Positions 10,765-56,518 of a stretch of 64,000 bases of DNA are shown one piece after another. Each line of letters opens with the position of its first letter. Position 1 is the stretch's first letter. The notes below the pieces were generated by a model, which saw only the letters and a program-made list of their open reading frames with translations, had not been told where the DNA came from and searched no databases. A program made the translations under genes and the position numbers. The DNA lies in NCBI GenBank assembly GCA_039815185.1, contig JBCBZT010000009.1:64001-128000 (forward strand), given 5' to 3'. This stretch comes from Cyanobacteria bacterium P01_A01_bin.123. GTDB taxonomy: Bacteria; Cyanobacteriota; Cyanobacteriia; Phormidesmidales; Phormidesmidaceae.

Positions 10765-12702
10765 ATGGCAACTGCGATTCCCTACATTGCCCAACCCATC
10801 CTCAAAATTGATGGCAAGTCTGCGTCCGACACGCTGGTGCAAGACATTTTGCAAATCTCCGTCGAAGAGAGTTTGCATTTGCCCAGCATGTTTACCCTGG
10901 TGATTAAAAACGATCGCTTCCCCGGTCGCGATGACGACGCCGTTTGGACACACCAAAGCAGCTTTGCCATCGGTAAATCGATTGAAATTGGCTTTGTCAG
11001 CGCCGCCACCGAGTCCGACGAATTTGATGATGCCAACCAAGGCACGGTGCTGAATGGGGAAATCACCGCTATCGAAACCCACTTTACCCGCCAGTCCCAA
11101 GCACCGATTATCATTCGCGGCTACGACACCTCCCACCGCCTGCACCGGGGTCGCCAAAGCCGCTCCTTTCAAAACAAATCGGACTCCGACATTGTTAAAG
11201 AAATTGCCAAAGAGGTTGGCATCTCGACCAATACCGTGGACAGCACGGGCGGGCCATACGGCTACAACGACATCAGCGATTCTAGCGGCTACGTGTTTCA
11301 GCAAAACCAAACCAACATGGAGTTTTTGCGCCAGCTTGCCGCTCGTAATGGCTACGAGCTGTTTGTGCAAGACGACAAACTCAACTTTCGCAAACCCGCC
11401 AAAGGTGACACCCTCACCTTAGAGTGGCTAAAAGATTTGCATAGCTTTCGGGTACGGGTCAGCAGCGCCGAACAGATTAAAAGTGTGGAGGTGCGCGGTT
11501 GGGACTACAGCCAAAAGAAAGTCCTCTCCGAAACCATCAGCAGTGCCAGCAAAGTCCACACCAGCACGGACAACACCAGCACCAGCAGTGTGGTCAGCAG
11601 CCTGAAGCCCACATCGCCGTCTATGGTGGTCGTCAACCACCCGTTTGCCAAATCGACTGAGGCCAAAACCATCGCCCAGGGTCTCTATGATGAGCTTTCG
11701 GGTGAATATGTCTCCGCCGATGCTACAGCTGAGGGCAACCCCAAAATTCGCCCCGGCAAGGTGGTGAAGCTGTCAGACATGGGGAATTACAGCGGCACCT
11801 ACTACGTGACTGAAACTCGCCACCTCTTCCACGAGCGCATTTACACCACCGAATTTAGCGTGCGGGGGCTACGAGGCGGCGACTTGCTGCAAACCCTGTC
11901 TCCCCCAACCCGACTGCAACCCGGACAAACTTGCCTAGTGGGCATTGTCGCTGACAACAACGACCCTAAGGGTTGGGGGCGCGTGCGGGTGAAGTTTCCC
12001 ACCCTTACCGAAGATCACATGAGCTATTGGGCTCGGGTGGTATCGGCTGGCGCTGGCGCCAGTCGGGGGTTAGATTGTCTACCTGAAATTAACGATGAAG
12101 TCCTCGTCGCCTTTGAACATGGGGATATCCATCGCCCTTATATCGTCGGTGGCGTTTGGAACGGTAGCGATGCTCCACCGGAAAAACCTGAAAAGTCAGT
12201 CGCCGATGGGAAAGTGCGGCTGCGTACATTTAAAACCCGTACGGGGCATTCCCTGCAATTTATTGAAGAAGATAAGGACAGCAGCAAAAAAGGGGTGTAT
12301 GTTGACACCGTTTATGGCCATCAAGTTGATCTCAATGACAGCGAGAAAAAGTCGCAGATCAAAACCAAAGAAGGCCACTATATTTTGTTTGACGATAGCA
12401 ATAAAAAAATAGAAATCAAAACTAATGGCGGCCATAAAATCTTGTTAGACGAAGGCTCTAGCAAAATAGATGTAATTTCCAAAGGCAGCATAAATGTAAA
12501 ATCAGGCTCTAGCGGTAATTCTGAAAACATTGCCATTAATGGAGGAAATATTACCCTCAAGGGCAGTACTGGAATTACCCTGCAGGTGGGCAGCACATCG
12601 ATAAAGTTGACCAGCACAGGGGTCACCATTTCAGGGGCGACCATTTCGGTCAAAGCGACGGGCATTAATACCATTTCTGGCAGTATGGTCAAATTGAATT
12701 AG
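10765..12702 (+). CDS. vgrG: VgrG-related spike protein (contractile injection system type)
   Basis: gp27-like N-part (SHRLHRGR..RSFQN, QxNQTNMEFL), OB-fold DPKGWGRVRVKFP / LPEINDEVLVAFEHGD, beta-strand-rich C-terminal repeats. Confidence 0.88.
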   Translation: MATAIPYIAQPILKIDGKSASDTLVQDILQISVEESLHLPSMFTLVIKNDRFPGRDDDAVWTHQSSFAIGKSIEIGFVSAATESDEFDDANQGTVLNGEITAIETHFTRQSQAPIIIRGYDTSHRLHRGRQSRSFQNKSDSDIVKEIAKEVGISTNTVDSTGGPYGYNDISDSSGYVFQQNQTNMEFLRQLAARNGYELFVQDDKLNFRKPAKGDTLTLEWLKDLHSFRVRVSSAEQIKSVEVRGWDYSQKKVLSETISSASKVHTSTDNTSTSSVVSSLKPTSPSMVVVNHPFAKSTEAKTIAQGLYDELSGEYVSADATAEGNPKIRPGKVVKLSDMGNYSGTYYVTETRHLFHERIYTTEFSVRGLRGGDLLQTLSPPTRLQPGQTCLVGIVADNNDPKGWGRVRVKFPTLTEDHMSYWARVVSAGAGASRGLDCLPEINDEVLVAFEHGDIHRPYIVGGVWNGSDAPPEKPEKSVADGKVRLRTFKTRTGHSLQFIEEDKDSSKKGVYVDTVYGHQVDLNDSEKKSQIKTKEGHYILFDDSNKKIEIKTNGGHKILLDEGSSKIDVISKGSINVKSGSSGNSENIAINGGNITLKGSTGITLQVGSTSIKLTSTGVTISGATISVKATGINTISGSMVKLN

Positions 12703-12706
12703 TGGG

Positions 12707-12734
12707 GCAGGGACGCGATTAATCGCGTCCGTAC
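12707..12734. repeat. Second REP-like palindrome type
   Basis: Perfect 20-bp palindrome GGACGCGATT|AATCGCGTCC (12711-12730) with GCAG...GTAC flanks. Confidence 0.65.
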
Positions 12735-12759
12735 AGGGTAGATAGCAGGAGAGACAGGG

Positions 12760-13152
12760 ATGGGATTTCAGGTGGTGATGGGAGCGGTGTTGCAGTGCAG
12801 TTTTGGTTCAGCACCGACTAGTTTGATTGTGATTCCCAAGGGGCTCCCGGTGACGGCAGTAGGGCCGTTTGCAGCTACCATCATGGACTATGCCCCGATT
12901 GTGAATATTCCCACTTTTGCCATGTGCAGTTCTTTGGCGAACCCAACGGTCGCTTCGGCAACCGCAGCCGCTAGTGGGGTGTTGACACCTATGCCCTGTG
13001 TCCCTGTGATTCCGGCTCCATGGAGTCCAGGATGTTCCAAGGTGCAAATCAATAATTTCTTGGCCCTCAACGATTCGTCAAAGTGTTACTGCACGTGGGG
13101 GGGAACAATTTCGATTACCAGCCCTGGACAATATACGGTTCAAATTCCCTGA
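12760..13152 (+). CDS. DUF4280 PAAR-like spike-tip protein
   Basis: GAVLQCSFG, NIPTFAMC, PMPCVP, CYCTWGGTISITSPGQ. Confidence 0.88.
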   Translation: MGFQVVMGAVLQCSFGSAPTSLIVIPKGLPVTAVGPFAATIMDYAPIVNIPTFAMCSSLANPTVASATAAASGVLTPMPCVPVIPAPWSPGCSKVQINNFLALNDSSKCYCTWGGTISITSPGQYTVQIP

Positions 13153-14326: not shown

Positions 14327-16039
14327 ATGTTGAAAAATCCTGCCACTCGCTACCGTCCCTTCGCTCCGGTTGATTTGAGCGATCGCACCTGGCCCAACCA
14401 AACCATCGACCATCCCCCGATCTGGCTGAGTACCGACCTGCGTGACGGTAACCAAGCCTTGATTGAACCGATGAACCGCGATCGCAAGCTGCGCCTCTTC
14501 CAACTTTTGATTGACATTGGCTTCAAGGAAATTGAGGTAGCCTTTCCCTCCGCCTCTCAAACCGATTTTGATTTTGTCCGTACGTTGATCGAGCAAGACC
14601 TGATTCCCGATGACGTTACCATTCAGGTGTTGACCCAAGCCCGCGATCATCTGATTCGCCGGACGTTTGAAGCCCTACACGGAGCAAAGCGAGCGATCGT
14701 GCATGTGTACAACGCCACGGCTCCTGTATTTCGGCGGACGGTCTTCAATCGCGATCGCGCCGCTACTGTTCAACTTGCCGTAGATGCAGCCACTTTGATC
14801 AAAACCTTGGCTGCTCAGCAGCCAGAGACCGATTGGCGGTTTCAATATTCCCCTGAAACCTTTACGGCGACGGAGCTAGATTTTGCCAAAACCATCTGTG
14901 ACGCGGTGTTGGATGTGTGGCAACCCACCCCTGACCATAAAGCCATCATCAACCTACCCGCCACGGTAGAAGTCTCTACCCCCAATATCTTTGCCGATCA
15001 GGTGGAGTGGATACACCGCCATCTCGCCCGCCGCGACAGCGTCGTGCTGAGCGTCCACAACCACAACGATCGCGGGTCAGGCGTTGCCGCTGCTGAGTTG
15101 GGTCAACTGGCGGGGGCAGATCGGGTGGAAGGTTGCCTGTTTGGTCACGGTGAACGCACAGGCAACGTGGACATCGTCACCCTGGCATTGAACCTCTACA
15201 CCCAGGGGATTCACCCCGGTTTGGATTTTTCTGACATTAATGAAGTGGCCCGCATTGTTGAAGACTGTACTCAATTGCCCATTCATCCCCGTCACCCCTA
15301 TGTTGGTGATTTGGTGTTTACGGCATTCTCCGGGTCTCACCAAGATGCGATCAAGAAAGGCTTAGCCGCGCAGTCTGCCAATGGACTTTGGGAAGTCCCC
15401 TATTTGCCCATCGATCCGGCTGATGTGGGGCGCACCTATGAGTCAGTGATTCGGGTTAACAGCCAGTCGGGTAAAGGCGGAATTGCTTATCTCCTAGAGC
15501 GTGACTTTGGCTTGAGTTTACCCCGACGGTTGCAGATTGAATTTAGCCATGTGGTGCAGCGAGAACTCGATGCCCACGGCAAAGAGATGAACGGTGATGC
15601 ACTCTATAGCCTGTTTGATCGAGAATATGTACAGGCTAAGGAACCCTTTGCATACCTGAGTTATCAGTGGGATGCAGACAAAGGCTTGCTCGTTCTCAAT
15701 CTCCAACTCAACGGCCAACCTTGCCGCCTTTCTAGCCAAGGCCCAACGCCCGTGGCTGCATTACTCACCGCGTTGAATCTAGGGATTCGTATCCACCATC
15801 AATCCAATCAGCTTGTGGTTACTCGTGGGGGGGAACAACCTGATGCGATCGCTTACATTGAATTAGCGATCGACGGCTTCCACGGCACCCACTATGGCGT
15901 TGGCATCCACCCCGATGGCACTATTGCTGAATTACTAGCCGTGTTGAGCAGTCTCAACCGCGCCCTCCGCCGTGTCGATGCGGAAGCCCAAGCTAAGCTG
16001 CTAAAGCAGGGATTGTCTGACCGCCATTTGGTCTACTAA
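14327..16039 (+). CDS. leuA: 2-isopropylmalate synthase (yeast/proteobacterial type)
   Basis: [58 protein letters not shown]. Confidence 0.95.
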
Positions 16040-17841: not shown

Positions 17842-18447
17842 TTATCGTCTGCGCCCGCCAGACACTGGAATGGGTGGGCCGGCGATCGCGTTTAGATTCT
17901 GACACCGCAACACGTCGTTAAAACTCATACTCCGCCGACCTTCAATCCGGGCAACCGTTTCGATCGCGCTAGCCAAATGTTGGGCAGCTTCGGCTCGACT
18001 GTAGCCCCGTCGGGCTGCGACTTGAATCGCAGTTTCATCGGCGGTAATAGCGTCGCTGGGACCTCGGCTGTCACGCCACACGCGCGTGGCTGCGATCGCA
18101 GTTACGCCCCCGGCCATTAGCATGCCGACCGCATTGCCCTGAAAGGTTTCAAATAGGGTAGCTGCCACCCCCGCGATCGCCACCCCACGCGGCACATCAA
18201 GTTTAAACGGGTTGGTTCCTGTCACCCAGCCAATTTGCTGCAAAAACAGCAGATCCCGTTCTGGAATAGACAGCCTGCCCCACAGGTCGAAATTAATCGA
18301 AATCGGATAGGTTTGCTTCCAAGGTCGGCGAGATTCAGTAGTAATCACTTGAGGTTGAGCCTGGTTGCTGCGGATACGGGTTTTCATCCAGCCTGAAGCA
18401 GGCATCAGCTCTCGCAGCCGAGGAATTTCTTGATCGGGATTAACCAT
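17842..18447 (-). CDS. DUF3318 family cyanobacterial protein
   Basis: EIPRLRELMPASG, INFDLW, ADETAIQVAARRGY, LRCQNL. Confidence 0.75.
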   Translation of the reverse strand: MVNPDQEIPRLRELMPASGWMKTRIRSNQAQPQVITTESRRPWKQTYPISINFDLWGRLSIPERDLLFLQQIGWVTGTNPFKLDVPRGVAIAGVAATLFETFQGNAVGMLMAGGVTAIAATRVWRDSRGPSDAITADETAIQVAARRGYSRAEAAQHLASAIETVARIEGRRSMSFNDVLRCQNLNAIAGPPIPVSGGRRR

Positions 18448-18469: not shown

Positions 18470-19675
18470 TCATAGCAACAGGGTAGCAGGGGAATCATCA
18501 AAAAACTTTTCAATGATCCTTTCGTAAACACTGCAAAGCTCGTGAATATGAGCGATGGGAATATGCTCACCAATCTGGTGCATCGTATTGTCTAAAGGCC
18601 CATACTCAACCGTGACGCAATGGGGCACGATAAACCGAGCATCGGTGATGCCACCGTCGGTGCTGAGGCGGGGGCGGCGGCCAGAAACCTCTTCAACAAC
18701 CCCCTGGACTAGGGCAACAAATTGATCTTCAGGATTAGTACGAAAGGCTTCACCACTCACCCGGAAGCGGATGTCGTATTCAGTGCCATATTCGTGGGCA
18801 ATGGGCTCAATTGTGTCACGGATCAACTGTTGCAGACCCGCCCCGGTTTGCTCGTCATTAAAGCGGATGTTGAAGCGCAGATTAACGTGAGCTGGAATCA
18901 CATTTTCCGCACAACTGGCGGTTTCAAATTGGGTGATTTCCAGGTTAGAGGGTTCAAACCACTCATTGCCATTATCCAGCGGTAAATTCTGCAACGCCGT
19001 TGCCATGGCCACTGCTGCCGGGACTGGATTCAGCACGTTGCGCTGATAGGCAACGTGTCCTTGTTTTCCCTTGACGGTGATAAAGGTGTTGATACTGCCC
19101 CGGCGACCAATATGCACACAATCGCCCATTTCAGACGGATTAGTCGGCTCACCAACAATGCAGGCATCTATTGTTTCGCCGCGCTGTGCCAAATATTCCA
19201 TCACGGGTTTAGTCCCATTGATGGCCTCATGTTCTTCATCGCCAGTAATGATGAAGCTGAACGATCCCTTGAGGTTATCCTGCCGTTTCGCCAGCCAAGC
19301 TGAAACAGCGGCAATAAAGCAACCGATGCCCGCTTTCATATCGACAGTGCCCCGCCCCCACAAAATACCGTCTCTAATTTCAGCTTTATAGGGATCTATA
19401 TCGCCCCAACGCTGGCGATCGCCCTCTGGGACGACATCAGTATGTCCGGCAAAAGCCAGGTTTGGGCTTGCGGTTCCTAACCTGGCGTAGAGATTATCCA
19501 CTTCATAACTGCCAGGGTGATTGTGAAATTTCAAACGCTCACAGGTGAAGCCCAGTCGTTCTAGGTGACGTTGAACAACATCCAACCCGCCTTCTCTGTC
19601 CGGTGTCACGCTTGGCCTTTGGATCAGTTCTTGTGTCAACGCAACTGGATCAAGCACACGAATTTCAACAGTCAT
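18470..19675 (-). CDS. dapE: Succinyl-diaminopimelate desuccinylase
   Basis: PSVTP, NLYAR, FAGHTDVVP, GRGTVDMK, ITGDEE, VGEPT, GRRGS, QGHVAY, FNIRFND, TDARF. Confidence 0.92.
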   Translation of the reverse strand: MTVEIRVLDPVALTQELIQRPSVTPDREGGLDVVQRHLERLGFTCERLKFHNHPGSYEVDNLYARLGTASPNLAFAGHTDVVPEGDRQRWGDIDPYKAEIRDGILWGRGTVDMKAGIGCFIAAVSAWLAKRQDNLKGSFSFIITGDEEHEAINGTKPVMEYLAQRGETIDACIVGEPTNPSEMGDCVHIGRRGSINTFITVKGKQGHVAYQRNVLNPVPAAVAMATALQNLPLDNGNEWFEPSNLEITQFETASCAENVIPAHVNLRFNIRFNDEQTGAGLQQLIRDTIEPIAHEYGTEYDIRFRVSGEAFRTNPEDQFVALVQGVVEEVSGRRPRLSTDGGITDARFIVPHCVTVEYGPLDNTMHQIGEHIPIAHIHELCSVYERIIEKFFDDSPATLLL

Positions 19676-19702
19676 GGCCAACTCTCCTGAAGGACTTTAT
19701 AT

Positions 19703-20623
19703 TTAGGCCGCCTGCGTTGCTGCGGTCTGTTCGGTAACCAGATGTTTATAGGCGTCAATCAGACGCGTCGTGATCGGGCCAAACGGTTCAAACTGAACTT
19801 GATCAACCCGACTAACCGACTCAATTTCACAGGTGGTACCCGTTAGAAACACCTCTTGAGCCTGGGCCAGTTCTTCCAGTTTGATTTGACGCTCGAAAAC
19901 TGGGATACCTAGTTTTTCAGCCAGTTTAATGATGGTTTGCCGAGTAATGCCGTTTAAGAAACAATCCGGTATTGGCGTCAGCAACGCCCCATCAATCACC
20001 AGAAATACATTGGATGTTGTCGATTCTGCAACCAGCCCTCGATAGTCCAGCATGAGGGCGTCATCAAACCCTTGTTTGATGGCTTCATCCTTGCTCATAG
20101 TACAGATCGGGTAGAGGCAGGCGGCTTTGCTAACCGTCGGTGCCGTCGTTGGATCCGGTTTGCGCCAGGTGACCTGACTGGTGAGTTTCAGTGGCTTTTT
20201 GGCGGTATTGGTAAACAGCGTTGTGGGGAATGACCAGGCGGCAATGCCGAGGCAAATGGCGGTATCGGGTGCATAGACTCGCAACTTTTCACTGCCCCGC
20301 CAGGCAAAGTGGCGAATGTAGCCCACCTCGATAGGGTCTTTGTCCAACAGATCGTAGGTGGCCCCGACAATAGCGTCTGTCGAATACGGAATCTCAAAGC
20401 CAAGGATATTTGCCGACTGATGCAAGCGCTGAAGATGCTCGCTCAGTAAAAACGGTTTGCCATTATAAATACGGATCCCTTCAAACACACTGCTGGCGTA
20501 GTGCAACCCGTGGGTCAGCGGGTGAATTGCGGCGTCTTTCCAAACGGTAATGTTGCCATTCAGCCACAAAAATCCCTCTTTTTGATCAAACGGTAGTAGG
20601 GACATAAAAACTTCCGATGCCAT
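19703..20623 (-). CDS. Class IV PLP aminotransferase (IlvE-like fold)
   Basis: HGLHYASSVFEGIR, SKAACLY (PLP lysine), DDALMLD, CFLNGITR, EVFLTGT. Confidence 0.88.
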   Translation of the reverse strand: MASEVFMSLLPFDQKEGFLWLNGNITVWKDAAIHPLTHGLHYASSVFEGIRIYNGKPFLLSEHLQRLHQSANILGFEIPYSTDAIVGATYDLLDKDPIEVGYIRHFAWRGSEKLRVYAPDTAICLGIAAWSFPTTLFTNTAKKPLKLTSQVTWRKPDPTTAPTVSKAACLYPICTMSKDEAIKQGFDDALMLDYRGLVAESTTSNVFLVIDGALLTPIPDCFLNGITRQTIIKLAEKLGIPVFERQIKLEELAQAQEVFLTGTTCEIESVSRVDQVQFEPFGPITTRLIDAYKHLVTEQTAATQAA

Positions 20624-20683
20624 CGAGATCTGTACACACCAAAACTCAAAGGGAGAAGGAATGAGGGAATATTCCTACCTCCC

Positions 20684-21556
20684 CTAATCCCGCAACAGCT
20701 CATTAATAGAGGTTTTGGAACGCGTTTTGTCATCAACCGTTTTCACAATAACATTGCAGTATAGGCTGGGGCCGGGGGAACCATCTGGCAGCGGTTTGCC
20801 GGGTAATGTGCCGGGCACGACAACGGCATAGGGCGGAATCTCGCCGTAGAAAATCTCACCCGTCGCACGATTCACAATTTTTGTGGATTGGCTGAGGTAA
20901 ACGCCAATGGCAAGCACTGCCCCCTCGCGCACAATCACGCCTTCGGACACTTCGCTTTGCCCACCGACAAATACATTGTCTTCAATGATGACGGGGTTAG
21001 CCTGTAGCGGTTCAAGCACCCCCCCAATCACAACACCCGCAGACAGGTGACACCCTTTGCCGATTTGGGCGCAGGAACCAACAGTCACGTAGCTATCAAC
21101 CATGGTGTCGGTATCGACATAGGCGCCAACGTTGACAAAGCTGGGCATCAACACAACATTGCTTGCCACGTAGGAACCCCGGCGCACCACACAATTGGGC
21201 ACTGCCCTAAACCCGGCATGGGCATAGTCAGCTTGGGTCCAGCCCGAAAACTTGGAGGGCACTTTGTCAAACCACGGTGCATCCCCCAGTTTGGGATCTT
21301 TCAGGCCACTGGCAATGATGGCCGAGTCGTTTAACCGGAAGGATAACAACACGGCCTTTTTGAGCCACTGATTGACAACCCAGTCGTTGCCCGATTTCTC
21401 GGCAACGCGATACTGACCGCTGTCGAGACCGCTGACAGCGGCTTCAATCGCATCACGCGTTTCGCCTGATGTTTCGGCGCTGATGGTGCTGCGGTTTTCC
21501 CAAGCTGTATCAATAATGTTGATCAGGCTTTGCGTGTTCGTAGCTTCTGTGCCCAT
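20684..21556 (-). CDS. dapD: Tetrahydrodipicolinate N-succinyltransferase
   Basis: [59 protein letters not shown]. Confidence 0.95.
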
Positions 21557-21753
21557 TAATCTTATGCTGTTTACCCGTGCAAACCGAGAGATGTCAATCT
21601 TTAAGATGGTATCGCTAACGGGGAGTCGGGGGAAGGGGCTGCGATCGCTCATCAAAGCCGCAATATCGAGAAAACATACGGTGGATTGGGCTAGCTACAG
21701 AAGATTGGGTTAGCTACAGAATAAGACGGCTTGAATTTTCTGCGCCATTAGGC

Positions 21754-28038: not shown

Positions 28039-28845
28039 GTGCAGAAATTGATCACATATCATACTTACAAACCCAATAAGTACTTATCGAATTTTGTTAA
28101 ATATTATTGGCAGCTTGAACTTAATTCAAACTTGCAAACAGCTCATGCCGAAAGGGTGATTCCCTCTGGCGAACTGCAAATAATATTTCACTACAGAACC
28201 CCGTTTAGAGAAATTAGCAAGCACAATCAAAGCCTCATCCAGCCACAGTGCTTGATTTGTGGACAGCAAACGGAATATAAAGACGTCATCACTGCACCGG
28301 GCTCGGTGGGAATGCTTGCTGTCGTATTTTACCCCTATGCACTCAGCGCTTTTTTCCCAAATCCGGTTAGTGAATTTACTAATCAAAGTATTGCCCTGGA
28401 TAATTTCTTTCAATCAGAAACTAAAGAACTTCAGGAACGTATTATCGAGGCTGATGATATTCGTTTACGCATTCTGCTAGTCGAAAACTTCTTGCTTAAT
28501 AGATTATCTATACCTAATCGCTTCTCTATTGCCAGGGAAGCCGTTAATATGATTGCCGGAGCAAACGGACAAATTACTATTAGTGAAGCAGCTCGCAAGC
28601 TAAATATCAGTAAACGGCAGTTCGAAAGAATATTTTTGGAAAATGTCGGGGTGTCGCCAAAGAAGTTTGGTCGTATTATCAGGTTGAATACCGCCATCAA
28701 ACTTTTCAAGAGGGCTGACTCTTTAACAACGCTTACCTATGAGGCTGGATATTTTGATCCATCCCATTTGATTCGCGACTTCAGAGAATTTACCGGTTTG
28801 TCTCCCAAAGCGTTTTTTAGATTCCCTTGCCAGATACCAGAATAA
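28039..28845 (+). CDS. AraC-family regulator (DUF6597-like N-terminus)
   Basis: YVKYYW-type N-terminus (FVKYYW), SKRQFERIF..VGVSPK, GYFDPSHLIRDFREFTG. Confidence 0.85.
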   Translation: MQKLITYHTYKPNKYLSNFVKYYWQLELNSNLQTAHAERVIPSGELQIIFHYRTPFREISKHNQSLIQPQCLICGQQTEYKDVITAPGSVGMLAVVFYPYALSAFFPNPVSEFTNQSIALDNFFQSETKELQERIIEADDIRLRILLVENFLLNRLSIPNRFSIAREAVNMIAGANGQITISEAARKLNISKRQFERIFLENVGVSPKKFGRIIRLNTAIKLFKRADSLTTLTYEAGYFDPSHLIRDFREFTGLSPKAFFRFPCQIPE

Positions 28846-28922
28846 CGTCGCGTTCTTACAATTTTCTTTAGCAGGCTTGAGATACATTGCAGACATACGC
28901 CTCATCGACCAAGGATTATGTC

Positions 28923-30125
28923 ATGCGAATCAAAAATGAACTACTCAAGCAAATTAAACACCATATCTATGAATTATCTGTGAATATCGGCGAAAGGCCA
29001 ACCGGCTCAGCGGCAAATCACAGCGCAGAGAATTATATTAAGCAGGTCTTTGTCCAAAACGGGTTTCAGGTCAAATTACAGAGATTTAACTGCATCGATT
29101 GGGAGAAAAATGAAGCGACCTTAAACGTTGGGAATACTGAAGTGTCTGTTGAACCTTCACCATATTCGTTGCCCTGTGATATTCAAGCTGACATCGAGGT
29201 GATAGAAACCCTTTTTCAACTGGAGAAAGCTGATCTGGTGGACAAAATCGCTGTATTATGCGGTGAACTAACCCAAGAGTCACTAATGCCGAAAAACTTC
29301 AGGTTTTATAATCCTGAATACCATCAAAGAATCATTAATCTGCTTGAAGAAAAGACCCCTGCAGCAATACTAACGACTAGCTTGAATGACAACCACCTGA
29401 CGCCTGTATTTGAAGATGGTGACTTCAATATTCCATCTGCTGTATTTTTTGAAAATGATAAAGACAGGGTTAGACAAAGCGACTTGCCGATTCATTTAAA
29501 GATCAGCAGCAGCAGGCATAAAGCAGTCGGCGCGAATGTTATTGCTCGGAAAAATCAGACTAATGAAAATAAATTTGTTATCACTGCCCACTTTGATACT
29601 AAGCCAGGAACACCGGGTGCGCTGGATAACGCTGTAGGTGTTGCTGTATTGCTGACGCTATCAGAGATGTTGAAAGATACGATGCCGGTACATGTTGGCG
29701 TTGAACTAGTTGCTTTCAATGGTGAAGATTACTTCTCTATTCCGGGACAAATGGCTTATCTTGATACATACAGCAGTGAATTTAATAAGATTAAGCTTGC
29801 CATAAACTGCGATGGATTAGGATTGAAAAATAGTACAACGGGTGTATCTTTGATGGAATGTTCGGAAAATTATGTTGCCCATATTGAATCAATCAATCAG
29901 TCTTTTAGCAATATTGAAAAACTATCCCCTTGGTATCAAGGAGATCACATGCTATTTGCCTCGGCACAAGTCCCGACCCTTGCGATAACGTCCACCGGAA
30001 TATTTGAGCTGATGGATACTATTATCCATACCCAGAACGATAAACTAAACTTGGTTGATCCAGAATTGATTGGTGAAGTTTGCCTCTTCTTACAGCAGAT
30101 TATAAATTCGAGCAATTTAGACTAA
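28923..30125 (+). CDS. M28 family metallopeptidase
   Basis: IGERPTGS, TAHFDT, GALDNAVG, FNGED, GDH, IHTQND. Confidence 0.85.
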   Translation: MRIKNELLKQIKHHIYELSVNIGERPTGSAANHSAENYIKQVFVQNGFQVKLQRFNCIDWEKNEATLNVGNTEVSVEPSPYSLPCDIQADIEVIETLFQLEKADLVDKIAVLCGELTQESLMPKNFRFYNPEYHQRIINLLEEKTPAAILTTSLNDNHLTPVFEDGDFNIPSAVFFENDKDRVRQSDLPIHLKISSSRHKAVGANVIARKNQTNENKFVITAHFDTKPGTPGALDNAVGVAVLLTLSEMLKDTMPVHVGVELVAFNGEDYFSIPGQMAYLDTYSSEFNKIKLAINCDGLGLKNSTTGVSLMECSENYVAHIESINQSFSNIEKLSPWYQGDHMLFASAQVPTLAITSTGIFELMDTIIHTQNDKLNLVDPELIGEVCLFLQQIINSSNLD

Positions 30126-49104: not shown

Positions 49105-51291
49105 CTACCAGGGACGCCAACCCTCCCAGTCGTTGTTAAAAATAGAGGTATTCGGAAACGCGGTGGGGTTGCCGTCTTGGTTAAGCCGTTGCTGTAGGGT
49201 CTCCAGCAGCGGTTCTCGGTTGGGCAAGTTATCGACTAATTCGTAGGGCAATACGCCTTGATTCAGAGCAAAGTCAATGGTGGTTCCAGTGGCGACACCC
49301 ACTGACCACTCAAAGGAGTGAACCCGATAAGCTGCTGCGGCAATCGTGCTGGCGGCAATGCTTTTGCTGGCAACTAAAAGATTGTCAATCTTTTGAGGAA
49401 TCAGCGATCGCAGGGGAATTTGAGCGGGATAGGCTTGACCATGGGCCTGGCGTACACCAGGAAATTCAATATTGCCAGGGGCTTCTGGTGGATACTCTGC
49501 CATGCAGGGATGGAAGTCAATGGCGTACTGGGCAATGCCTACCGAATCGGGATAAAAATAGGACCGGGTACGCCCTTCAATGTCATCGGCTGGGGTGTTT
49601 TCAACAATGGCATCGAGTAGGTTGAGATCGGCCAGCGATCGCCATAGATTCAAATAAGTCCGCTCCGGCAAATTGTCACGGTAGAACTCACTGTGAAAAT
49701 CGTTCCAGGAAAAATCGACTTCATTGATCCGAAACCCTTCGTCGTAGCCATAGGAGGGACGACCAATAATGCGCCGGGCTTCACGCATGTAGGGGTATTT
49801 CGACAACCCGTGGGCTGTCCCCATCGGGGCGTCAAAGCCGCTAATAAAACGGTGATTAGGGCTGGGTTCCTTGACCCCCTCGCCCAGTTGAGAGTCAGTT
49901 GTGCCTTCCACCAGCCAGTAATAGTAGCCGTAGGCGTTCTCTTCTCCCCTGCGTAGGGTTTCAGTGCGGAGGCCGCCCAGCCAGCCACCGGGGCTGAGTT
50001 GGCCTGAGTCTTGCAACTGCTGGTGAGTATAAATCAGGTTATCTTCAGCGGTGCCGGGGCGGTAATCGTTGCCCCAGGTCCAGTTCTGCATAGAAATATC
50101 ACCCGGTGCAGGCATGGCAACGCCAAAAATTCTCTCCTCCGCTCGGGGATTGGCGCTCCAAATACGACGATAGGTAAAGACAAAATCGAAGTAGTTGAAG
50201 TCTTCACCGCGATCGCGCTCATAGCTGTAATAAGGCGCATATTGCGGATAATAGGCAGGCATCACCTGGGGTTGGGGTTCCTCAGTGCGCTCCATCGTAA
50301 AGGTATAGGTAAACCCCTGAGTGCAGTAAGGATACGGCTCGGCCACTGGAGATGAGGGGTTGCGATGGCTGCGCGGATCTAGGCCGAGTTGGTAAGGCAC
50401 ATCTGCCAGGGCAACCACCTCTCCAGTTTCGGTAGCTTCAACCACATACCAGTCGGCAGGGCGAGGGGGTGCAGGCGCTGTGGCGTCTGCTTCCTCTGCT
50501 GTCACTGGCTGGGGGACAAACTGAATAATGGTTTTACTAAAGCGCTCAGAGTCTTCGTAGCGATAGGCGTCTTCAATTGTGTAGGAGAGTGGTTCGCTGT
50601 TGAGCGGCAAGGCACCAGGCGCAGGGGTGTGCTGAATCGCGATCGCGCTTTCGATCATCCGGCCATCAGCGCTAATAGCCAGGTCTTTCAACACTGTCGA
50701 AGGGAACCAATTGAGTTCGCCACCGCCGTGCCGTGCTGCATCAGCCAACATCTGGCGTAAAATCTGGTCGGCATCTTGGGGGATGAAGCAAGACACACTC
50801 ACCCAACACGAGCCAGGATTAAGTTCCCCATACCACTTTTCAATGCGATCGCGCAGTTCGTTGTAGCCCTTGGCATAGAACAGCAGTTCCCGCTGTTTGC
50901 GGGATTCATCCAGTGCTGAAGTGCCCTGAGCAGTGAGTTGGCCACCAATCCAGTCGGTGATTTCGGTGATACAGACGGTACGTCCGGCCAGTAGGCTTTC
51001 ATAGGCGGTAGCAGTCCCCGACAACCCGCCACCAATAATCAACACTTCACACTCGACCACTTGATCTGGGTCGCGCGGTAAGGCTGCGATAACCCGAGAG
51101 GGGAGTTGTTTTCCAGTAGCTTGATTCTGAATATTTGGGGTTGTAGAGGCTGTCGTGCCGGAATTTTGGGAGGCTTGGCTATCGCTCTGCTGGGCACTTC
51201 CGGGTGAAGGCAATGAACCGGATATCAGCAGCACACCTAACATCCCTACGAGGCACTGCTGAGAAAAACGCTGAACCATAGATGACATCAA
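49105..51291 (-). CDS. Exported FAD-dependent oxidoreductase
   Basis: Signal peptide, IIGGGLSG, DWIGGQLT, PYMREARR, IPLRSLIP..IDNLLV. Confidence 0.85.
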   Translation of the reverse strand: MMSSMVQRFSQQCLVGMLGVLLISGSLPSPGSAQQSDSQASQNSGTTASTTPNIQNQATGKQLPSRVIAALPRDPDQVVECEVLIIGGGLSGTATAYESLLAGRTVCITEITDWIGGQLTAQGTSALDESRKQRELLFYAKGYNELRDRIEKWYGELNPGSCWVSVSCFIPQDADQILRQMLADAARHGGGELNWFPSTVLKDLAISADGRMIESAIAIQHTPAPGALPLNSEPLSYTIEDAYRYEDSERFSKTIIQFVPQPVTAEEADATAPAPPRPADWYVVEATETGEVVALADVPYQLGLDPRSHRNPSSPVAEPYPYCTQGFTYTFTMERTEEPQPQVMPAYYPQYAPYYSYERDRGEDFNYFDFVFTYRRIWSANPRAEERIFGVAMPAPGDISMQNWTWGNDYRPGTAEDNLIYTHQQLQDSGQLSPGGWLGGLRTETLRRGEENAYGYYYWLVEGTTDSQLGEGVKEPSPNHRFISGFDAPMGTAHGLSKYPYMREARRIIGRPSYGYDEGFRINEVDFSWNDFHSEFYRDNLPERTYLNLWRSLADLNLLDAIVENTPADDIEGRTRSYFYPDSVGIAQYAIDFHPCMAEYPPEAPGNIEFPGVRQAHGQAYPAQIPLRSLIPQKIDNLLVASKSIAASTIAAAAYRVHSFEWSVGVATGTTIDFALNQGVLPYELVDNLPNREPLLETLQQRLNQDGNPTAFPNTSIFNNDWEGWRPW

Positions 51292-51787
51292 AGATTTTTT
51301 TTAGCTTAGACAACTCAAAGGTCGTATGACGAAAGAGCATCCAAAATTCATTGAAGCACGGGATCTTAGGTTTCGTTAACCTGTAAACCTATCAGTCAGC
51401 CACCGCTCGCGAGTTTGAAACAGCCTTAAATGAGTCTCATCCCTAGACCTGATCGGTTGCAGCATTTGTAACCCCTAAGTGACGATAGGTTTAGCAGCTA
51501 TCCTGGCATTGAACCAGATAGACGGATATCTATCTCAACAACGTCTATCTCAACAGTGGTTGGAAAGTTGTAGCTCTGGTCAAAATTATGGATCAAAGCC
51601 TTGCTGTGCGTAAAAGAGCACTCACCCTGCGAGCCCTTGGCAATTGAACCCTACATCTCAGATGCCTATCGGCCATGACTCCCTGCATGGTGTCTATTCA
51701 GGGGGGAATGAATAATTAGGCATCGTCAACCCCGTCTTGATCACAAACGCCTTTGCTGTTGAGGCTTTAACAGCCACCTCTTTTTGA

Positions 51788-51813
51788 GCCCCCCGAAGCG
51801 AATTCTGGGGGGC
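51788..51813 (-). terminator. Terminator after the LRR gene
   Basis: GCCCCCC...GGGGGGC stem just past the stop codon. Confidence 0.45.
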
Positions 51814-51834
51814 GTTGCTAAGTAGTCCGTTTGA

Positions 51835-53277
51835 CTAGAATTCGCAAATTGATTCAGGTTGAACGGGACATGAACCGTTCTGAAGTGGATTATCACCCAC
51901 CTTGAGGGAATACAATTCACTCAAATCTGACAAGGGGGTCAACGCTGAGACCCGGTTATAACTCAGATCGAGTGTACGCAGACTCGTCAGATTCGATAAG
52001 GAATCTACGTCTAAAATTCGATTCTTGCCGAGATTAAGCGTATACAGACTTGTTAAATTTGCCAGTGGAGCCAGCGCTACAATTTGGTTTTCCCCTAGAT
52101 GAAGGTGGGAGAGATGAGTCAAATTTGATAGCGGACTCAAGTCTGCAATGTGATTGTCATCCAGCAGGAGAACGTCTAAGTTAACAAGCTGGGATAGCGG
52201 CTCCAAGTTTGAAATTTGGTTGTCATCTAGATCAAGGTTGGTTAGACCCGTGAGGTGGGATAGCGGTTCTAAGTCTGCAATTTGGTTGTCGTCAAGATAG
52301 ATGCCCTCCAAACTCGTGAGTCTTGATAACGGCCCTAAGTCGGAAACCTGATTGTCATTGAGATAAAGTTGACGTAGCTGAGTTAACCCTGATAATGGTG
52401 CTAAATTTGAGACTTGGTTATCACTGAGATGAAGCGTCTCTAAGCTAACTAGACCTGACAAGGAATCAATTGCGGATATCTGATTATTGCTGAGTGCAAG
52501 TATTTCTAGACTAGTTAACACCGATAGCGCATCTATATTGGCGATTTGATTATTCTCAAGAGAAAGATAGTTTAGGTGAGTGAGGCCCGACAAAGATTCG
52601 ACATTAACGATTCGATTATTTCCTGATTTGAGATATTCTAATTGAATTAATTCGGAAAATGCATCTATCTCAACGACTTGATTGCCAAAGAGGGAAAGGC
52701 GAGTCAGATTCGTTAGCGCGGATAAAGCTTGAACATCGTCAACTTGGTTGAGGTTGAGGTTGAGCCAGTCTAATTCTGTGAGTCTGGATAAAGGTTGTAT
52801 GTCTGTAATTTGATTGAAGCTGAGTTCGAGCCCTTCTAGGTTTGTCAGGTTTGATAACGGTTCTATATCAGAGATTTGGTTGTCACTGAGATCGAGAACT
52901 GTAAGGTCTGTTAGGGCCGAAATCGGCGTTATGTCTGATATTTGAGTGCCATGAATCCTGAGATAGGTCAAGTTAGTCAGGACTGACAAGGGCTCTAAAT
53001 TTTCAATATTACTAATACTGAGGTCAAGCTCGCTCAAGTTACTGAGGATTTCATCAGCGCGATCGCAGTCCTCTGTTTCTGCCTTTGATAATAAAACTTC
53101 AACGGTATGGCGAGCTTCTGGTATGAGATTGTCTTGATCTTCACACCAACTCGCAAAGCTAGAATAGTTTTCAGGGTTGGATTGAGCCATCACAGGACCC
53201 GTGGCAGATCCCACAATTCATGCTGCCAGCAGACTGCTGCCTAGGGTGACTCTTAAGTTCAAATGGAAGGGAAACAT
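51835..53277 (-). pseudogene. Internalin-like LRR gene with an in-frame TGA at codon 20; rest of the frame intact
   Basis: Aligns with 53613-55064 from ATG 53277; paralog codon TTA is TGA here (53218-53220). Confidence 0.8.
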
Positions 53278-53401
53278 GGAGGCAATTTTAGATTTCAACA
53301 TTATTCAGCTTCAGCCCTAAAAATAGAAATTCCGAACTGGTTTAATCATGTTTCTCATAAAAAATGAGTTGGTATTATGCCCTTTTGGGGAATGCCAGTG
53401 G

Positions 53402-53530
53402 TTGCTAAATATTGAGGGTTAGGACGAAGCATTTGTAGGCTGGGGAGCGGAAGATCAAGACATGATCGAACGCTATTTTGCCGATGGACATCATATCTGC
53501 CGCTGCCCCCATTTGGTGTATTTACACTTC
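53402..53530 (+). pseudogene. Glycosyltransferase remnant
   Basis: LLNIEG*DEAFVGWGAEDQDMIER matches the GG(Y/F)DExFxGWGxED motif, with a TAG stop in it. Confidence 0.65.
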
Positions 53531-53612
53531 ACTATATCGTTAATTAACCGTGGCAACCTGTCGCGCTCGTTGAGGCCAAGCGACGACACTACTATGCAAA
53601 GAGAATGCCGTC

Positions 53613-55064
53613 TTAATAAAATTCGCAGGTGGAATCAGGCTGAACTGGACATGAGATATCTTCAAGCGGATTGTCGCCCACTTTAAGGGAAAATAGCCGC
53701 TCTAAATTTGCTAAGGGAGTCAACTCTGAGATTAGATTGTTGCTGAGATTAAGCGTATTTAGGCTTGTCAAATTAGCGAGAGAGCCTACGTCTAAAATGC
53801 GATTATGGCTGAGATTTAGAGTGCGCAGACGCGTCAAATTTGCCAGTGGAGCCAACTCTAAAATTTGGTTGTCAGCCAGATTCAACTCGGAGAGATTCGT
53901 CAAGCTTGATAAAGACGCTAAATCTGAAATTTGGTTGTCTTCAAGACGAAGGAACTCTAAATTAGTGAGTTGCGACAGCGGCTCTAAGTCTGAAATCTCG
54001 TTGTCATTGAGAGAGAGACTTCCTAGATTAGTGAGTTGTGCTAGCGGCGCTAAATTTGAAACTCGATTATCGTTCAGAAAAACCCCTGATAAACTCGTCA
54101 ACCCTGACAAGGGTTCTAGGTCGGAAATCTGATTATTACTGAGGTCAAGAATGTCTAATTCAGTTAACTCTGATTCTACTAGAGCATCGATAGCTGATAT
54201 GTTGTTGTTATTAAGATTGAGAAGCCCTAGACTTCTTAACTCTGAAAGGGCCTCTATATTGACAATCTCATTGTTCCGCATCCAGAGCCACTCCAGGCGA
54301 TCTAACCCTGCCAAAGGTTCTATATTGACAATTCGATTGTTGCTCAATATGAGCCATTTTAACTTATTGAGTTCAGAGAGTGAAGTGATATCAACAATCT
54401 GATTCTCCAGTAACTCAAGATGTGTTAAGTTCGTTAGTCTCGCTAAGGCTTGAACATCTTCAATTTGGTTAAGATTAAGATTAAGCTCTTTCAGATTGGT
54501 CAGCCTTGATAAAGGCTGTATGTCACCAATTTGGTTGCGCCCAAGATATAGCCATTCTAGATCGGTCAGCCTTGATAAAGGCTGTATATCACTAATTTGG
54601 TTGCGCCCAAGATATAGCCATTCTAGATTGATCAGATTTGATAACGGTTCCACATTCGAAATCTCATTATCACTGAGAGTAAGATTTGTGAGATTTGTGA
54701 GTCCTGAAAGTGGGGTTATATCTGAGATTTGATTGTCATGAAGACTCAAATCGGTCAACTGAGTCAGCACAGAGAGGGGCTCCAAATTTTCGATTTGCTT
54801 TTCGATAAGCTGAAGCTGGCTCAAGTTACTGAGGATTTCATCAGCGCGATCGCAGTCTTCTGTTTCTGCTCTTGATAGCAAAACATCAACGGTATGGCGA
54901 GCTTCTGGTGTGAGATTATCTCGATTTTCACACCAATCCGCAAAGCTAGAATAGGTTTCAGGGTTGGATTGGGCCATAACGGCACCTGTGGTAGATCCTA
55001 TAATTAATGCTGCCAGCAGACTGCTGCCTAGGGTGATTTTTAAGTTTGAACGGAAGGGGAACAT
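53613..55064 (-). CDS. Exported internalin-like LRR protein
   Basis: Signal peptide, FADWC...DC cap, 22-aa LxxLxLxxNQIxDxxPL repeats, CPVQP..C C-terminal cap. Confidence 0.92.
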   Translation of the reverse strand: MFPFRSNLKITLGSSLLAALIIGSTTGAVMAQSNPETYSSFADWCENRDNLTPEARHTVDVLLSRAETEDCDRADEILSNLSQLQLIEKQIENLEPLSVLTQLTDLSLHDNQISDITPLSGLTNLTNLTLSDNEISNVEPLSNLINLEWLYLGRNQISDIQPLSRLTDLEWLYLGRNQIGDIQPLSRLTNLKELNLNLNQIEDVQALARLTNLTHLELLENQIVDITSLSELNKLKWLILSNNRIVNIEPLAGLDRLEWLWMRNNEIVNIEALSELRSLGLLNLNNNNISAIDALVESELTELDILDLSNNQISDLEPLSGLTSLSGVFLNDNRVSNLAPLAQLTNLGSLSLNDNEISDLEPLSQLTNLEFLRLEDNQISDLASLSSLTNLSELNLADNQILELAPLANLTRLRTLNLSHNRILDVGSLANLTSLNTLNLSNNLISELTPLANLERLFSLKVGDNPLEDISCPVQPDSTCEFY

Positions 55065-55269
55065 GGGGGCGATTTAGATTTCAACATTATCCAGCTTCAG
55101 TCTTAAAAATAGAAATTCCGAATTGATTCAATCGTATTTCTCATAAAAATTGAGATCGATTGATGAATTAGATTGATGTCATTTCAGAAGTCGATAGATA
55201 CTTTAACGGAGTTTTCTAAGAAAGCTTTTTGGGTTACAAAAATTTCAACACATTTCATATCTAAAAATG

Positions 55270-55295
55270 AAGAGCAGCGCGATCGCGCTGCTCTT
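55270..55295. terminator. Perfect 26-bp palindrome centred on HIP1, likely terminator
   Basis: AAGAGCAGCGCGA|TCGCGCTGCTCTT. Confidence 0.55.
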
Positions 55296-55324
55296 TAATA
55301 CTGTTCATTAACTAAAACAGTGAC

Positions 55325-56518
55325 TTACGAATATTGGCTCGGTACTGGATAGGTCTCGTTGACAAACCAATCGCCAATCGCCTTGAACTTGTAGTCCACG
55401 GGGTCATGCAAACTAAACGTGCGTAGGTCGCGCCAATAGCGATCAAACCCATACTTAGACGCTGTTGCCCGTGCCCCCATCATGTCAAACATGTGGGTGG
55501 TAATCGTCAACCCCGTCTTGATTGCAAATGCCTTGGCTGAGGCGGCTTTGATGGCTACCTCGCCTCGTTCTTCAAAGGTTAGATCGGTATTGCGTTGCCA
55601 GGCGGTTTGCAGGGCTTCAGCGGCTTGGGTTGCCAAGGCGATCGCGGCTTGTAAATCCGTCCAATACTCGCCATAGCGATGCAAAATGTACGGATCATCA
55701 GTAGCTTGGTCTACTCCAGAGGTGAGCCAGGGGCGGGTTTGCGTTGCGGTATAGGCTTTCGCGGCGCTCAGGGCACCCTCAGCAATCCCAAGATAGGTGA
55801 ACACTTTGCCCAACTGGGAAACTAGAAAAATTAATGTCGGGAAAGCACTGGTAGGCACAGGGGGTGGCCCTACCAATTCTTCAGCGGCAACATAGACGTT
55901 CTCAAAGCTGTAGCTGCCGCTCACGGTGCGACGTTGACCCATATTGTCCCAATCGTCGTTATAGCGAATGCCCCCGCGGTCTTTGGGGATAACAAATACA
56001 TAGGGCTCGCCAGATTCTTCATGGATCGCTGCGATCGCATTCACATCTGCGATCGCAACCCCAGTGCCAAAACTTTTGGTGCCGTTGACTCGAAATCCAT
56101 CCCCATCGGAAACAATTTTGAGTCGTGCATCCCGCGCATTTAAGGCATTGGCCCAAAACAGATTATGCTCAACGGTCATTCGGTAGCTTTGCTCCGCTTG
56201 TCCGGGACGACCTAGCGCTGCTCCAGCATGGACCAAAACCACATGGTTGGCATACATCTGCCCAATCGACCCTTGGGCGGCCGCCAAAGTTTTCACCACC
56301 TGATAGGCGTCCAAGAACGTTGCTCCGCCACCACCATATTCGCGGGGAATCGGCAACGACAACAGACCTGATTGCTTGAGCAACTGGATTTCTTCGGTGG
56401 GTAGTCCAGCCGCTTCATCCAGCAGCACTGCCTGGGTCCCTAGCTGGGCTGCCACATCGTTTGCGACGGCTAGGTAATCTTTAGCACTAGAGGGTTGAAG
56501 CCCGACAACTTTAGACAT
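55325..56518 (-). CDS. Acyl-CoA dehydrogenase-fold monooxygenase (SfnB/DszC-like)
   Basis: IPREYGGGG, NGTKSFGTG, DDWDNMGQRRTVSG, FDRYWRDLRTFSLHDP. Confidence 0.85.
   Translation of the reverse strand: MSKVVGLQPSSAKDYLAVANDVAAQLGTQAVLLDEAAGLPTEEIQLLKQSGLLSLPIPREYGGGGATFLDAYQVVKTLAAAQGSIGQMYANHVVLVHAGAALGRPGQAEQSYRMTVEHNLFWANALNARDARLKIVSDGDGFRVNGTKSFGTGVAIADVNAIAAIHEESGEPYVFVIPKDRGGIRYNDDWDNMGQRRTVSGSYSFENVYVAAEELVGPPPVPTSAFPTLIFLVSQLGKVFTYLGIAEGALSAAKAYTATQTRPWLTSGVDQATDDPYILHRYGEYWTDLQAAIALATQAAEALQTAWQRNTDLTFEERGEVAIKAASAKAFAIKTGLTITTHMFDMMGARATASKYGFDRYWRDLRTFSLHDPVDYKFKAIGDWFVNETYPVPSQYS

Follow-up and report, generated by a model that had tools for sequence, protein, structure and literature searches.

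In a 64,000-nucleotide stretch of DNA (hereafter the window; positions 64,001 to 128,000 of contig JBCBZT010000009.1) from Cyanobacteria bacterium P01_A01_bin.123, a member of the Phormidesmidaceae, three adjacent genes encode a DapD-family N-acyltransferase, a fold-type IV pyridoxal phosphate (PLP) aminotransferase (AT) and a DapE-family deacylase. From the comparison of genomes, this dapD–AT–dapE cassette very probably replaces a lost DapL1 in the conversion of tetrahydrodipicolinate (THDP) to LL-diaminopimelate (LL-DAP), with native DapB acting upstream and native DapF and LysA downstream, and the reading that best accounts for the whole, to which we give a probability of about 55%, is that of a re-tooled acetylase route displacing dapL1. 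Gene content, order, exclusivity, sites and residues are read directly from the genomes, and it is from these that we infer every activity discussed below.

The original prediction had described three co-oriented, closely spaced genes in pathway order, and open reading frame (ORF) coordinates together with profile scores confirm this description: dapD (20684..21556), the AT gene (19703..20623) and dapE (18470..19675) follow one another on the minus strand from 21556 to 18470, with 60 bases between dapD and AT and 27 between AT and dapE. Homologues of the AT start at an ATG at 20602, inside the called ORF (20623-19703). The first gene product is a predicted THDP N-acyltransferase with an acetyltransferase-type pocket (A173, V176 and Q200, equivalent to E. 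coli G160, G163 and R187), the second a candidate N-acyl-DAP aminotransferase, derived from alphaproteobacterial IlvE (PRK07544) with a remodelled side-chain pocket, and the third a putative N-acyl-LL-DAP deacylase with intact metal-ligand motifs and several fixed changes near the substrate site. The cassette lies on a 201-kb contig, surrounded by cyanobacterial-type genes, and its GC content and codon use match those of the host, which rules out a foreign composition and argues for an old resident rather than a contaminant.

The genome of the window (G000; 99.99% complete, 5.99% contaminated) encodes dapB, dapF and lysA. Ddh was not found in it, and a check for dapL agreed with the original prediction of a route other than the one-step one, as DapL1 (TIGR03542) was not found in G000 either (best score 154.9 against a cut-off of 364.7 bits). 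We surveyed 173 genomes of the family and 401 sampled genomes of the class. Within the family, DapL1 is present in 134 genomes, dapD in 22, dapE in 21 and the AT in 20, and the overlap of DapL1 with the cassette genes is zero. When only good-quality genomes are considered (completeness of 90% or more, contamination of 5% or less, n = 116), 101 have DapL1 and 14 have dapD, and in the remaining one, G162, a contig end cuts the gene next to which dapL1 lies in that genus. One further carrier likewise lacks DapL1. Carriers span four genera, namely those labeled g4, g14 and g18 and the genus of G000: dapD occurs in 17 of the 22 g4 genomes and DapL1 in none of them, 3 of 5 g14 genomes and 1 of 46 g18 genomes (G163) are carriers, and G001, a congener of G000 that is 85% complete, has DapL1 and no cassette that we could see. 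Of the 401 genomes sampled across the class, 3 yielded dapD, and all of them belong to this family. The predicted adjacency of the three genes also proved to be conserved: the whole triad lies on a single contig in 15 of the 20 AT genomes, two others, whose gene order is compatible with it, are truncated by contig ends, and in the three genomes with split operons the AT remains joined to dapD while dapE is relocated. The AT is always present beside an intact dapD. In the two dapD genomes without AT, dapD is only 109 and 311 bases from the contig end; the short dapE of G092 stops at a run of N, and that of G192 is frameshifted near its end. Fisher p-values are given no weight here, as related genomes do not count independently.

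In three genera the cassette occupies the place of dapL1, and the flanks are different in each. All 16 of the g18 loci examined (43 have dapL1) show dapL1 and a HAD hydrolase gene head-to-head; in G163, the cassette and one 757-aa ORF occupy this dapL1 position in the same orientation, and the far flank is GDSL-glmM as in G150 and G152, both flanks of the site thus being shared. The 757-aa ORF, next to the cassette within the replaced interval (L043:3773-6043), has no Pfam match. In g14, a SagB-family gene immediately precedes dapD in all three carriers, and such a gene immediately precedes dapL1 in 19 DapL1 genomes of four genera (counted by eye from tables; 11 as ORF maps), which makes the upstream flank the shared one. 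Finally, dapL1 of G001 is head-to-head with a DUF3318 gene, and the cassette of G000 lies directly beside that gene in inverted orientation, only this flank being shared; this native DUF3318 gene (17842..18447, minus strand) lies 22 bases downstream of dapE. As for g4, where no genome has dapL1, a comparison of the cassette flanks with 37 dapL1 loci gave no match at 50% identity. Since the flanks differ between genera, recombination via shared flanks does not explain the reuse of the site. We also considered dapL remnants serving as homology arms: a comparison of dapL1 with 32 cassette loci by tblastn, blastn and nhmmer returned only a weak match in G163, between the 3′ end of dapE and the 3′ end of dapL (E value 0.001-0.005 in blastn, 0.43 in nhmmer), and this reading was rejected because alphaproteobacterial DapE accounts for the DapE tail position by position. 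There may be selection for the one-step replacement of dapL1. In this regard, the measured DapL enzymes have a reverse Vmax 17-63 times the forward one (PMC4176475, Table 2), such that both routes together could waste acyl-CoA. Cassette and DapL1 (TIGR03542) would bridge the same metabolic gap (PMC4176475, PMC7133116); they have no sequence relation, DapL1 acting in a single step and the cassette in three.

The class-IV enzyme that the original prediction had put forward for the DapC step emerges as the best candidate for it, with its L-specific core kept, its pocket remodelled and its gene always beside dapD, and it is probably the enzyme of that step. By profile, it matches PF01063; its best NCBIfam model is PRK07544 (372.4, below the cut-off of 396), and it scores 248.7 on TIGR01122, just above the cut-off of 245.55. 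It does not belong to the fold-type I family of DapC and ArgD, as only PF01063 and class-IV models match, nor is it a D-amino acid transaminase by profile (TIGR01121, 124.5 vs 277.45). Its predicted model, built with 149 sequences, has a mean predicted local distance difference test score (pLDDT) of 96.4 and matches solved branched-chain aminotransferases (BCATs) at a template modelling (TM) score of 0.92; with 21 sequences, the pLDDT had reached only 68.6. We numbered residues by alignment to E. coli IlvE and compared 21 clade members with 42 alphaproteobacterial rows and 86 distant representatives. Y31, F36, G38, R40, Y95, R97, K159, Y164, E193 and T257 are retained in all 21 clade members and, of the canonical BCAT motifs (Table 1 of PMC8401098), motif 1 (Y31xxxxF[ED]Gx[KR]40) and Y95xR97 are intact in 21/21. 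The motif 107[LMVI]G[VL]109 is broken (L-R-V/I in 21/21; 32 of the 42 alphaproteobacterial rows have A instead of G at position 108), and so is the beta-turn 256GTAA259 (GT(T/S)C in 21/21), and the D-amino acid transaminase motifs FxxxxYxV[IVA][KR], HxY and [RK]xH are absent. Pocket changes comprise P98H, G108R, N110Y, W126F/V, Y129T/S/A, G162C, G196T/A/S, A258T/S and A259C, at positions where the 42 alphaproteobacterial rows are nearly fixed; they are fixed in the 21 aligned clade members, and P98H, G108R, N110Y and A259C are found in 50 of 50. In L-specific BCATs, according to PMC8320979, the alpha-carboxylate is held in the P-pocket and the side chain in the O-pocket. The AT is under purifying selection, with a nonsynonymous to synonymous ratio (pN/pS) of 0.11 vs 0.08 and 0.07 for its neighbours, by a crude count over 7-8 g4 loci. 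We take W126 and Y129 to line the side-chain pocket, and the wider pocket with its new arginine would suit a long acidic substrate. Overall, the AT resembles alphaproteobacterial IlvE (PRK07544 / NF005726) in its 52-58% identity, its BCAT fold and its conserved PLP lysine and alpha-carboxylate residues, and differs from it by its score below the family cut-off, its pocket substitutions and its place in a dap cluster. A DapE–AT fusion was sought and rejected, the six long matches checked being fusions to LeuA, ATP-grasp-like domains, AlaS or unnamed extensions. P0242, P0260, P0277 and P0292 are fusion proteins in which a PRK07544-like aminotransferase is joined to LeuA, an ATP-grasp-like domain or a partial AlaS.

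The route had been predicted to be a succinylase one, and this "succinyl" label is probably wrong, given the loss of G160, G163 and R187 from DapD, its acetyltransferase-type residues and the lack of a detected SucA, SucCD, ScpA or ScpC in G000. In E. coli numbering, the window DapD has A160, V163 and Q187, which are found in 37, 38 and 38 of the 38 clade proteins, respectively. With A186G included, the four substitutions (G160A, G163V, A186G, R187Q) occur in 37-38 of 38 clade DapD, and G, G, A and R in 81 of 82 others, the single exception being P0161, an 80%-identical relative; R104, R112, D141, S148, G166, E169 and E189 are kept. Two annotated DapH N-acetyltransferases from lysine operons show A160, V or I163 and N187 (A/V/N and A/I/N vs A/V/Q in the window). 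Positions 163 and 187 reportedly govern the choice of acyl group, and G160, G163 and R187 are said to form part of the succinyl pocket (Beaman and colleagues, 2002). In Pseudomonas aeruginosa DapD, an arginine binds the succinate carboxyl and acetyl-CoA is rejected by the enzyme (PMC3281039). With E. coli queries, SucA, SucC, ScpA and ScpC had no match at an E value of 0.01 in G000, the one genome searched, and a SucD match proved by inspection to have a 922-aa acyl-CoA synthetase/acetyltransferase build, so that it is not SucD. On this basis, which consists of two DapH sequences, one genome and the structural roles ascribed to these residues, we lean towards a DapD that would use acetyl-CoA rather than succinyl-CoA. 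Like the acetylase branch of Bacillota (DapH, PatA and N-acetyl-DAP deacetylase), as represented by the two DapH proteins, the cassette has A160, V/I163 and an amide at 187; unlike that branch, its DapD has 33-34% identity to DapH, its deacylase is of DapE type and its transaminase of IlvE type, and the likeness of DapD to DapH thus appears to be convergence, not descent. DapE scores 393.8 bits on TIGR01246 (cut-off 361.8). Its HTD, DMK, DEE, GEP and MHQ motifs, which we take to be metal-binding, are intact in alignment with Neisseria DapE, and GRRG and GHVAY are kept; there are also fixed changes, including H for K at 188 and IT for TS at 343-344, presumably in the substrate site. All three cassette enzymes therefore look re-tooled.

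In the route that we envision, native DapB would supply THDP, which DapD would open and N-acylate, most likely with acetyl-CoA. The AT would then move an amino group, probably from glutamate, onto N-acyl-2-amino-6-oxopimelate with L-stereochemistry, its alpha-carboxylate site being kept, its pocket opened by W126F and Y129T, and the arginine of G108R possibly binding the far carboxylate. DapE would strip the acyl group to give LL-DAP, and native DapF and LysA would complete the route.

Several observations weigh against this reading. In the sole g14 genome that possesses dapL1, this gene and SagB lie apart, and G052, a 99% complete genome of another family that was not checked for dapD by name, has neither DapL1 nor a high-scoring DapL2, so that a loss of DapL1 need not always call for the cassette. 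Regarding the AT, a basic residue (R or K) at position 108 is shared by 20 of the 86 distant representatives and 5 of the 42 alphaproteobacterial sequences, and its stem is not special, that of DapE being longer (0.54 vs 0.84), which led us to reject a long AT stem as proof of a new function. In the four g14/g18 carriers, no G000-type native ilvE was seen; besides the cassette AT, the one stand-alone class-IV enzyme observed is of a divergent type, so that these carriers may have no IlvE-like enzyme other than the AT. G000 also encodes ArgD, whose family name PRK05093 covers succinyl-DAP transamination, and two class I DapL2/DapC-like enzymes (PRK05942 and PRK07366), any of which could transaminate; the better of the two scores 501.7 on TIGR03540, near a common paralogue elsewhere (508-512) and unlike the 557-575 reached in three of the four genomes from other families that lack DapL1. 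Together with the intact BCAT motif 1 and YxR and the narrow pass on TIGR01122, these enzymes speak for a scenario in which DapD and DapE replace DapL1, native ArgD or a class I paralogue transaminates, and the class-IV gene is a passenger with a branched-chain or side-reaction role. We consider this scenario unlikely: a separate ilvE, above the PRK06606 cut-off, is present in G000, where the AT is accordingly not the sole ilvE, and native ilvE is retained in all 15 g4 AT carriers as well; non-carrier congeners in g14 and g18 live without the AT gene; the AT is found between the dap genes or beside dapD in every intact locus, while its ordinary relatives are not near dap genes (0/79); and neither motif 2 nor the GTAA turn of canonical BCATs is intact. 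As side observations, the DapL1-less genomes G050, G055 and G059 each have an additional DapL2-like gene that narrowly misses the TIGR03540 cut-off (557-575 bits), and g18, g14, g13, g9, g5, g15 and g16 show no match to G000-type ilvE at an E value of 1e-90. The inspected genomes of these genera carry a divergent class-IV protein that is not a stand-alone gene in G000, which hints at another displacement.

The acyl group calls for the same caution. DapD passes TIGR00965, the N-succinyltransferase model (381.7 vs 375.4), and falls short of TIGR03532, the DapH N-acetyltransferase model (91.1 vs 231.75), it retains T145 and E189 where the two acetyltransferases have V, and the search for succinyl-CoA-forming enzymes was limited to a single genome. 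An ordinary succinylase route with a fold-type IV succinyl-DAP aminotransferase would agree with these scores, with that of DapE, with the retained GRRG and GHVAY and with an arginine and wider pocket that would fit a succinylated substrate too. The cassette does share the DapD and DapE families of the proteobacterial succinylase branch (DapD, DapC/ArgD, DapE), unlike which it has a G160A/G163V/R187Q pocket, a middle enzyme of fold-type IV instead of I, and a cyanobacterial host. With G163V and R187Q in 38 of 38 DapD homologues, as in acetyltransferases, and no succinyl-CoA-forming enzyme found in G000, we hold this route to be slightly more doubtful still than a passenger AT. Finally, a D-configured amine made by the AT (acyl-meso-DAP, bypassing DapF), a cassette product other than lysine and wall DAP, or the use of another acyl group (such as malonyl or propionyl) would fit the fixed changes of DapE and the arginine newly placed in the O-pocket loop, the site of the carboxylate trap in D-amino acid transaminases, but is improbable in view of the missing HxY and [RK]xH, the kept F36/R40/Y95/R97/T257, the dapF of G000 and an exclusivity with DapL1 that points to the LL-DAP step.

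Returning to the re-tooled acetylase route, we tentatively propose a broader scenario, which we see as possible at best: a proteobacterial succinylase pair would have been re-tooled together with an IlvE to give a DAP route that runs on acetyl-CoA, uses a fold-type IV acyl-DAP aminotransferase and would suit succinyl-CoA-poor hosts, and this route would spread from one cyanobacterial genus to another by replacing dapL1 in place. Only events that remove dapL1 would pay off, because DapL, being far faster in reverse, would drain the LL-DAP made by the cassette and burn acyl-CoA in a futile cycle.

With respect to origin, the AT clade comprises about 50 proteins of 72-98% identity whose named members are cyanobacterial (Leptothoe, Adonisia, Leptolyngbya and metagenome-assembled genomes). 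Outside it, identity falls to 52-58% and named matches are alphaproteobacterial. DapD and DapE show the same pattern, their nearest named non-cyanobacterial relatives being alphaproteobacterial at about 70% and 50-53% identity, respectively. As judged from their sequences, all three proteins derive from Alphaproteobacteria, which upholds the horizontal acquisition suspected from their proteobacterial look. Neither dapD nor dapE was found within up to 4 kb of ordinary alphaproteobacterial-type ilvE in any of 79 loci (42 of 80 loci being at least 6 kb long), and the triad is thus not seen in the donor group. A midpoint-rooted tree built on the three proteins of 17 loci places G163 within g4 (bootstrap 87 for G163 + G080; 77, 84, 95 and 100 for the enclosing branches), which points to transfer between cyanobacterial genera. 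P0161 (255 aa, on a 46-kb contig), a DapD 80% identical to that of the cassette with the same A/V/Q pocket, otherwise stands apart from the 38 cyanobacterial proteins and may mark a sister or donor lineage. A mobile element was considered and rejected: two loci showed no terminal repeats, and no clade member was found on viral contigs or on plasmids, where the 11 matches all had 44-51% identity.

Upstream of dapD, an element TTAGCGATA(C/G)CAT (21606..21618, minus strand) keeps its core in 12 of 12 aligned upstream regions (three genera and two other loci) and is a probable extended -10 promoter travelling with the cassette; it is missing upstream of dapD in G163, and a sigma-70 scan gave no call at it. 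Elsewhere in the window, 2.4 kb from the cassette, a leuA of yeast/proteobacterial type (14327-16039, plus strand; TIGR00970 754.8 vs 697.4) is possibly another imported amino-acid gene, G000 having a second, distant leuA-like gene on contig C113. By inspection of translations, a VgrG-like 645-aa gene is followed by a PAAR-like 130-aa gene (10765-13152, plus strand), likely as part of a contractile injection system locus. Low-GC stretches (0.40-0.45) occur at 28039-30125 and about 51000-56000; on inspection, they hold genes for an AraC-like regulator and for an M28-like peptidase.

Cells cannot do without DAP in making peptidoglycan and lysine, and PMC7133116 and PMC4176475 describe DapL as the enzyme that cyanobacteria use. 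PMC5615194 reports a DapC hole in 360 genomes whose filler "awaits experimental characterization" and PMC9026213 counts two DapC isozymes (for further background, see PMC3102117, PMC5814848 and bioRxiv 10.1101/559120). Among titles and abstracts, with subscription journals thinly covered, we found no publication that deals with a DapC of class IV or with the dapD of these cyanobacteria, nor did we find in print a link between Rickettsia IlvE and the DapC step. The main text of GapMind 2026 (PMC13759103) contains neither "dapC" nor "ilvE", and its supplements may bear on novelty. If the re-tooled acetylase route of these filamentous cyanobacteria were genuine, it would bring a fold-type IV enzyme to the DapC step, a natural succinyl-to-acetyl switch in a DapD that converges on DapH and is mis-annotated by current profiles, and a clean, repeated example of an essential gene being displaced, at the locus it occupied, by non-homologous genes.

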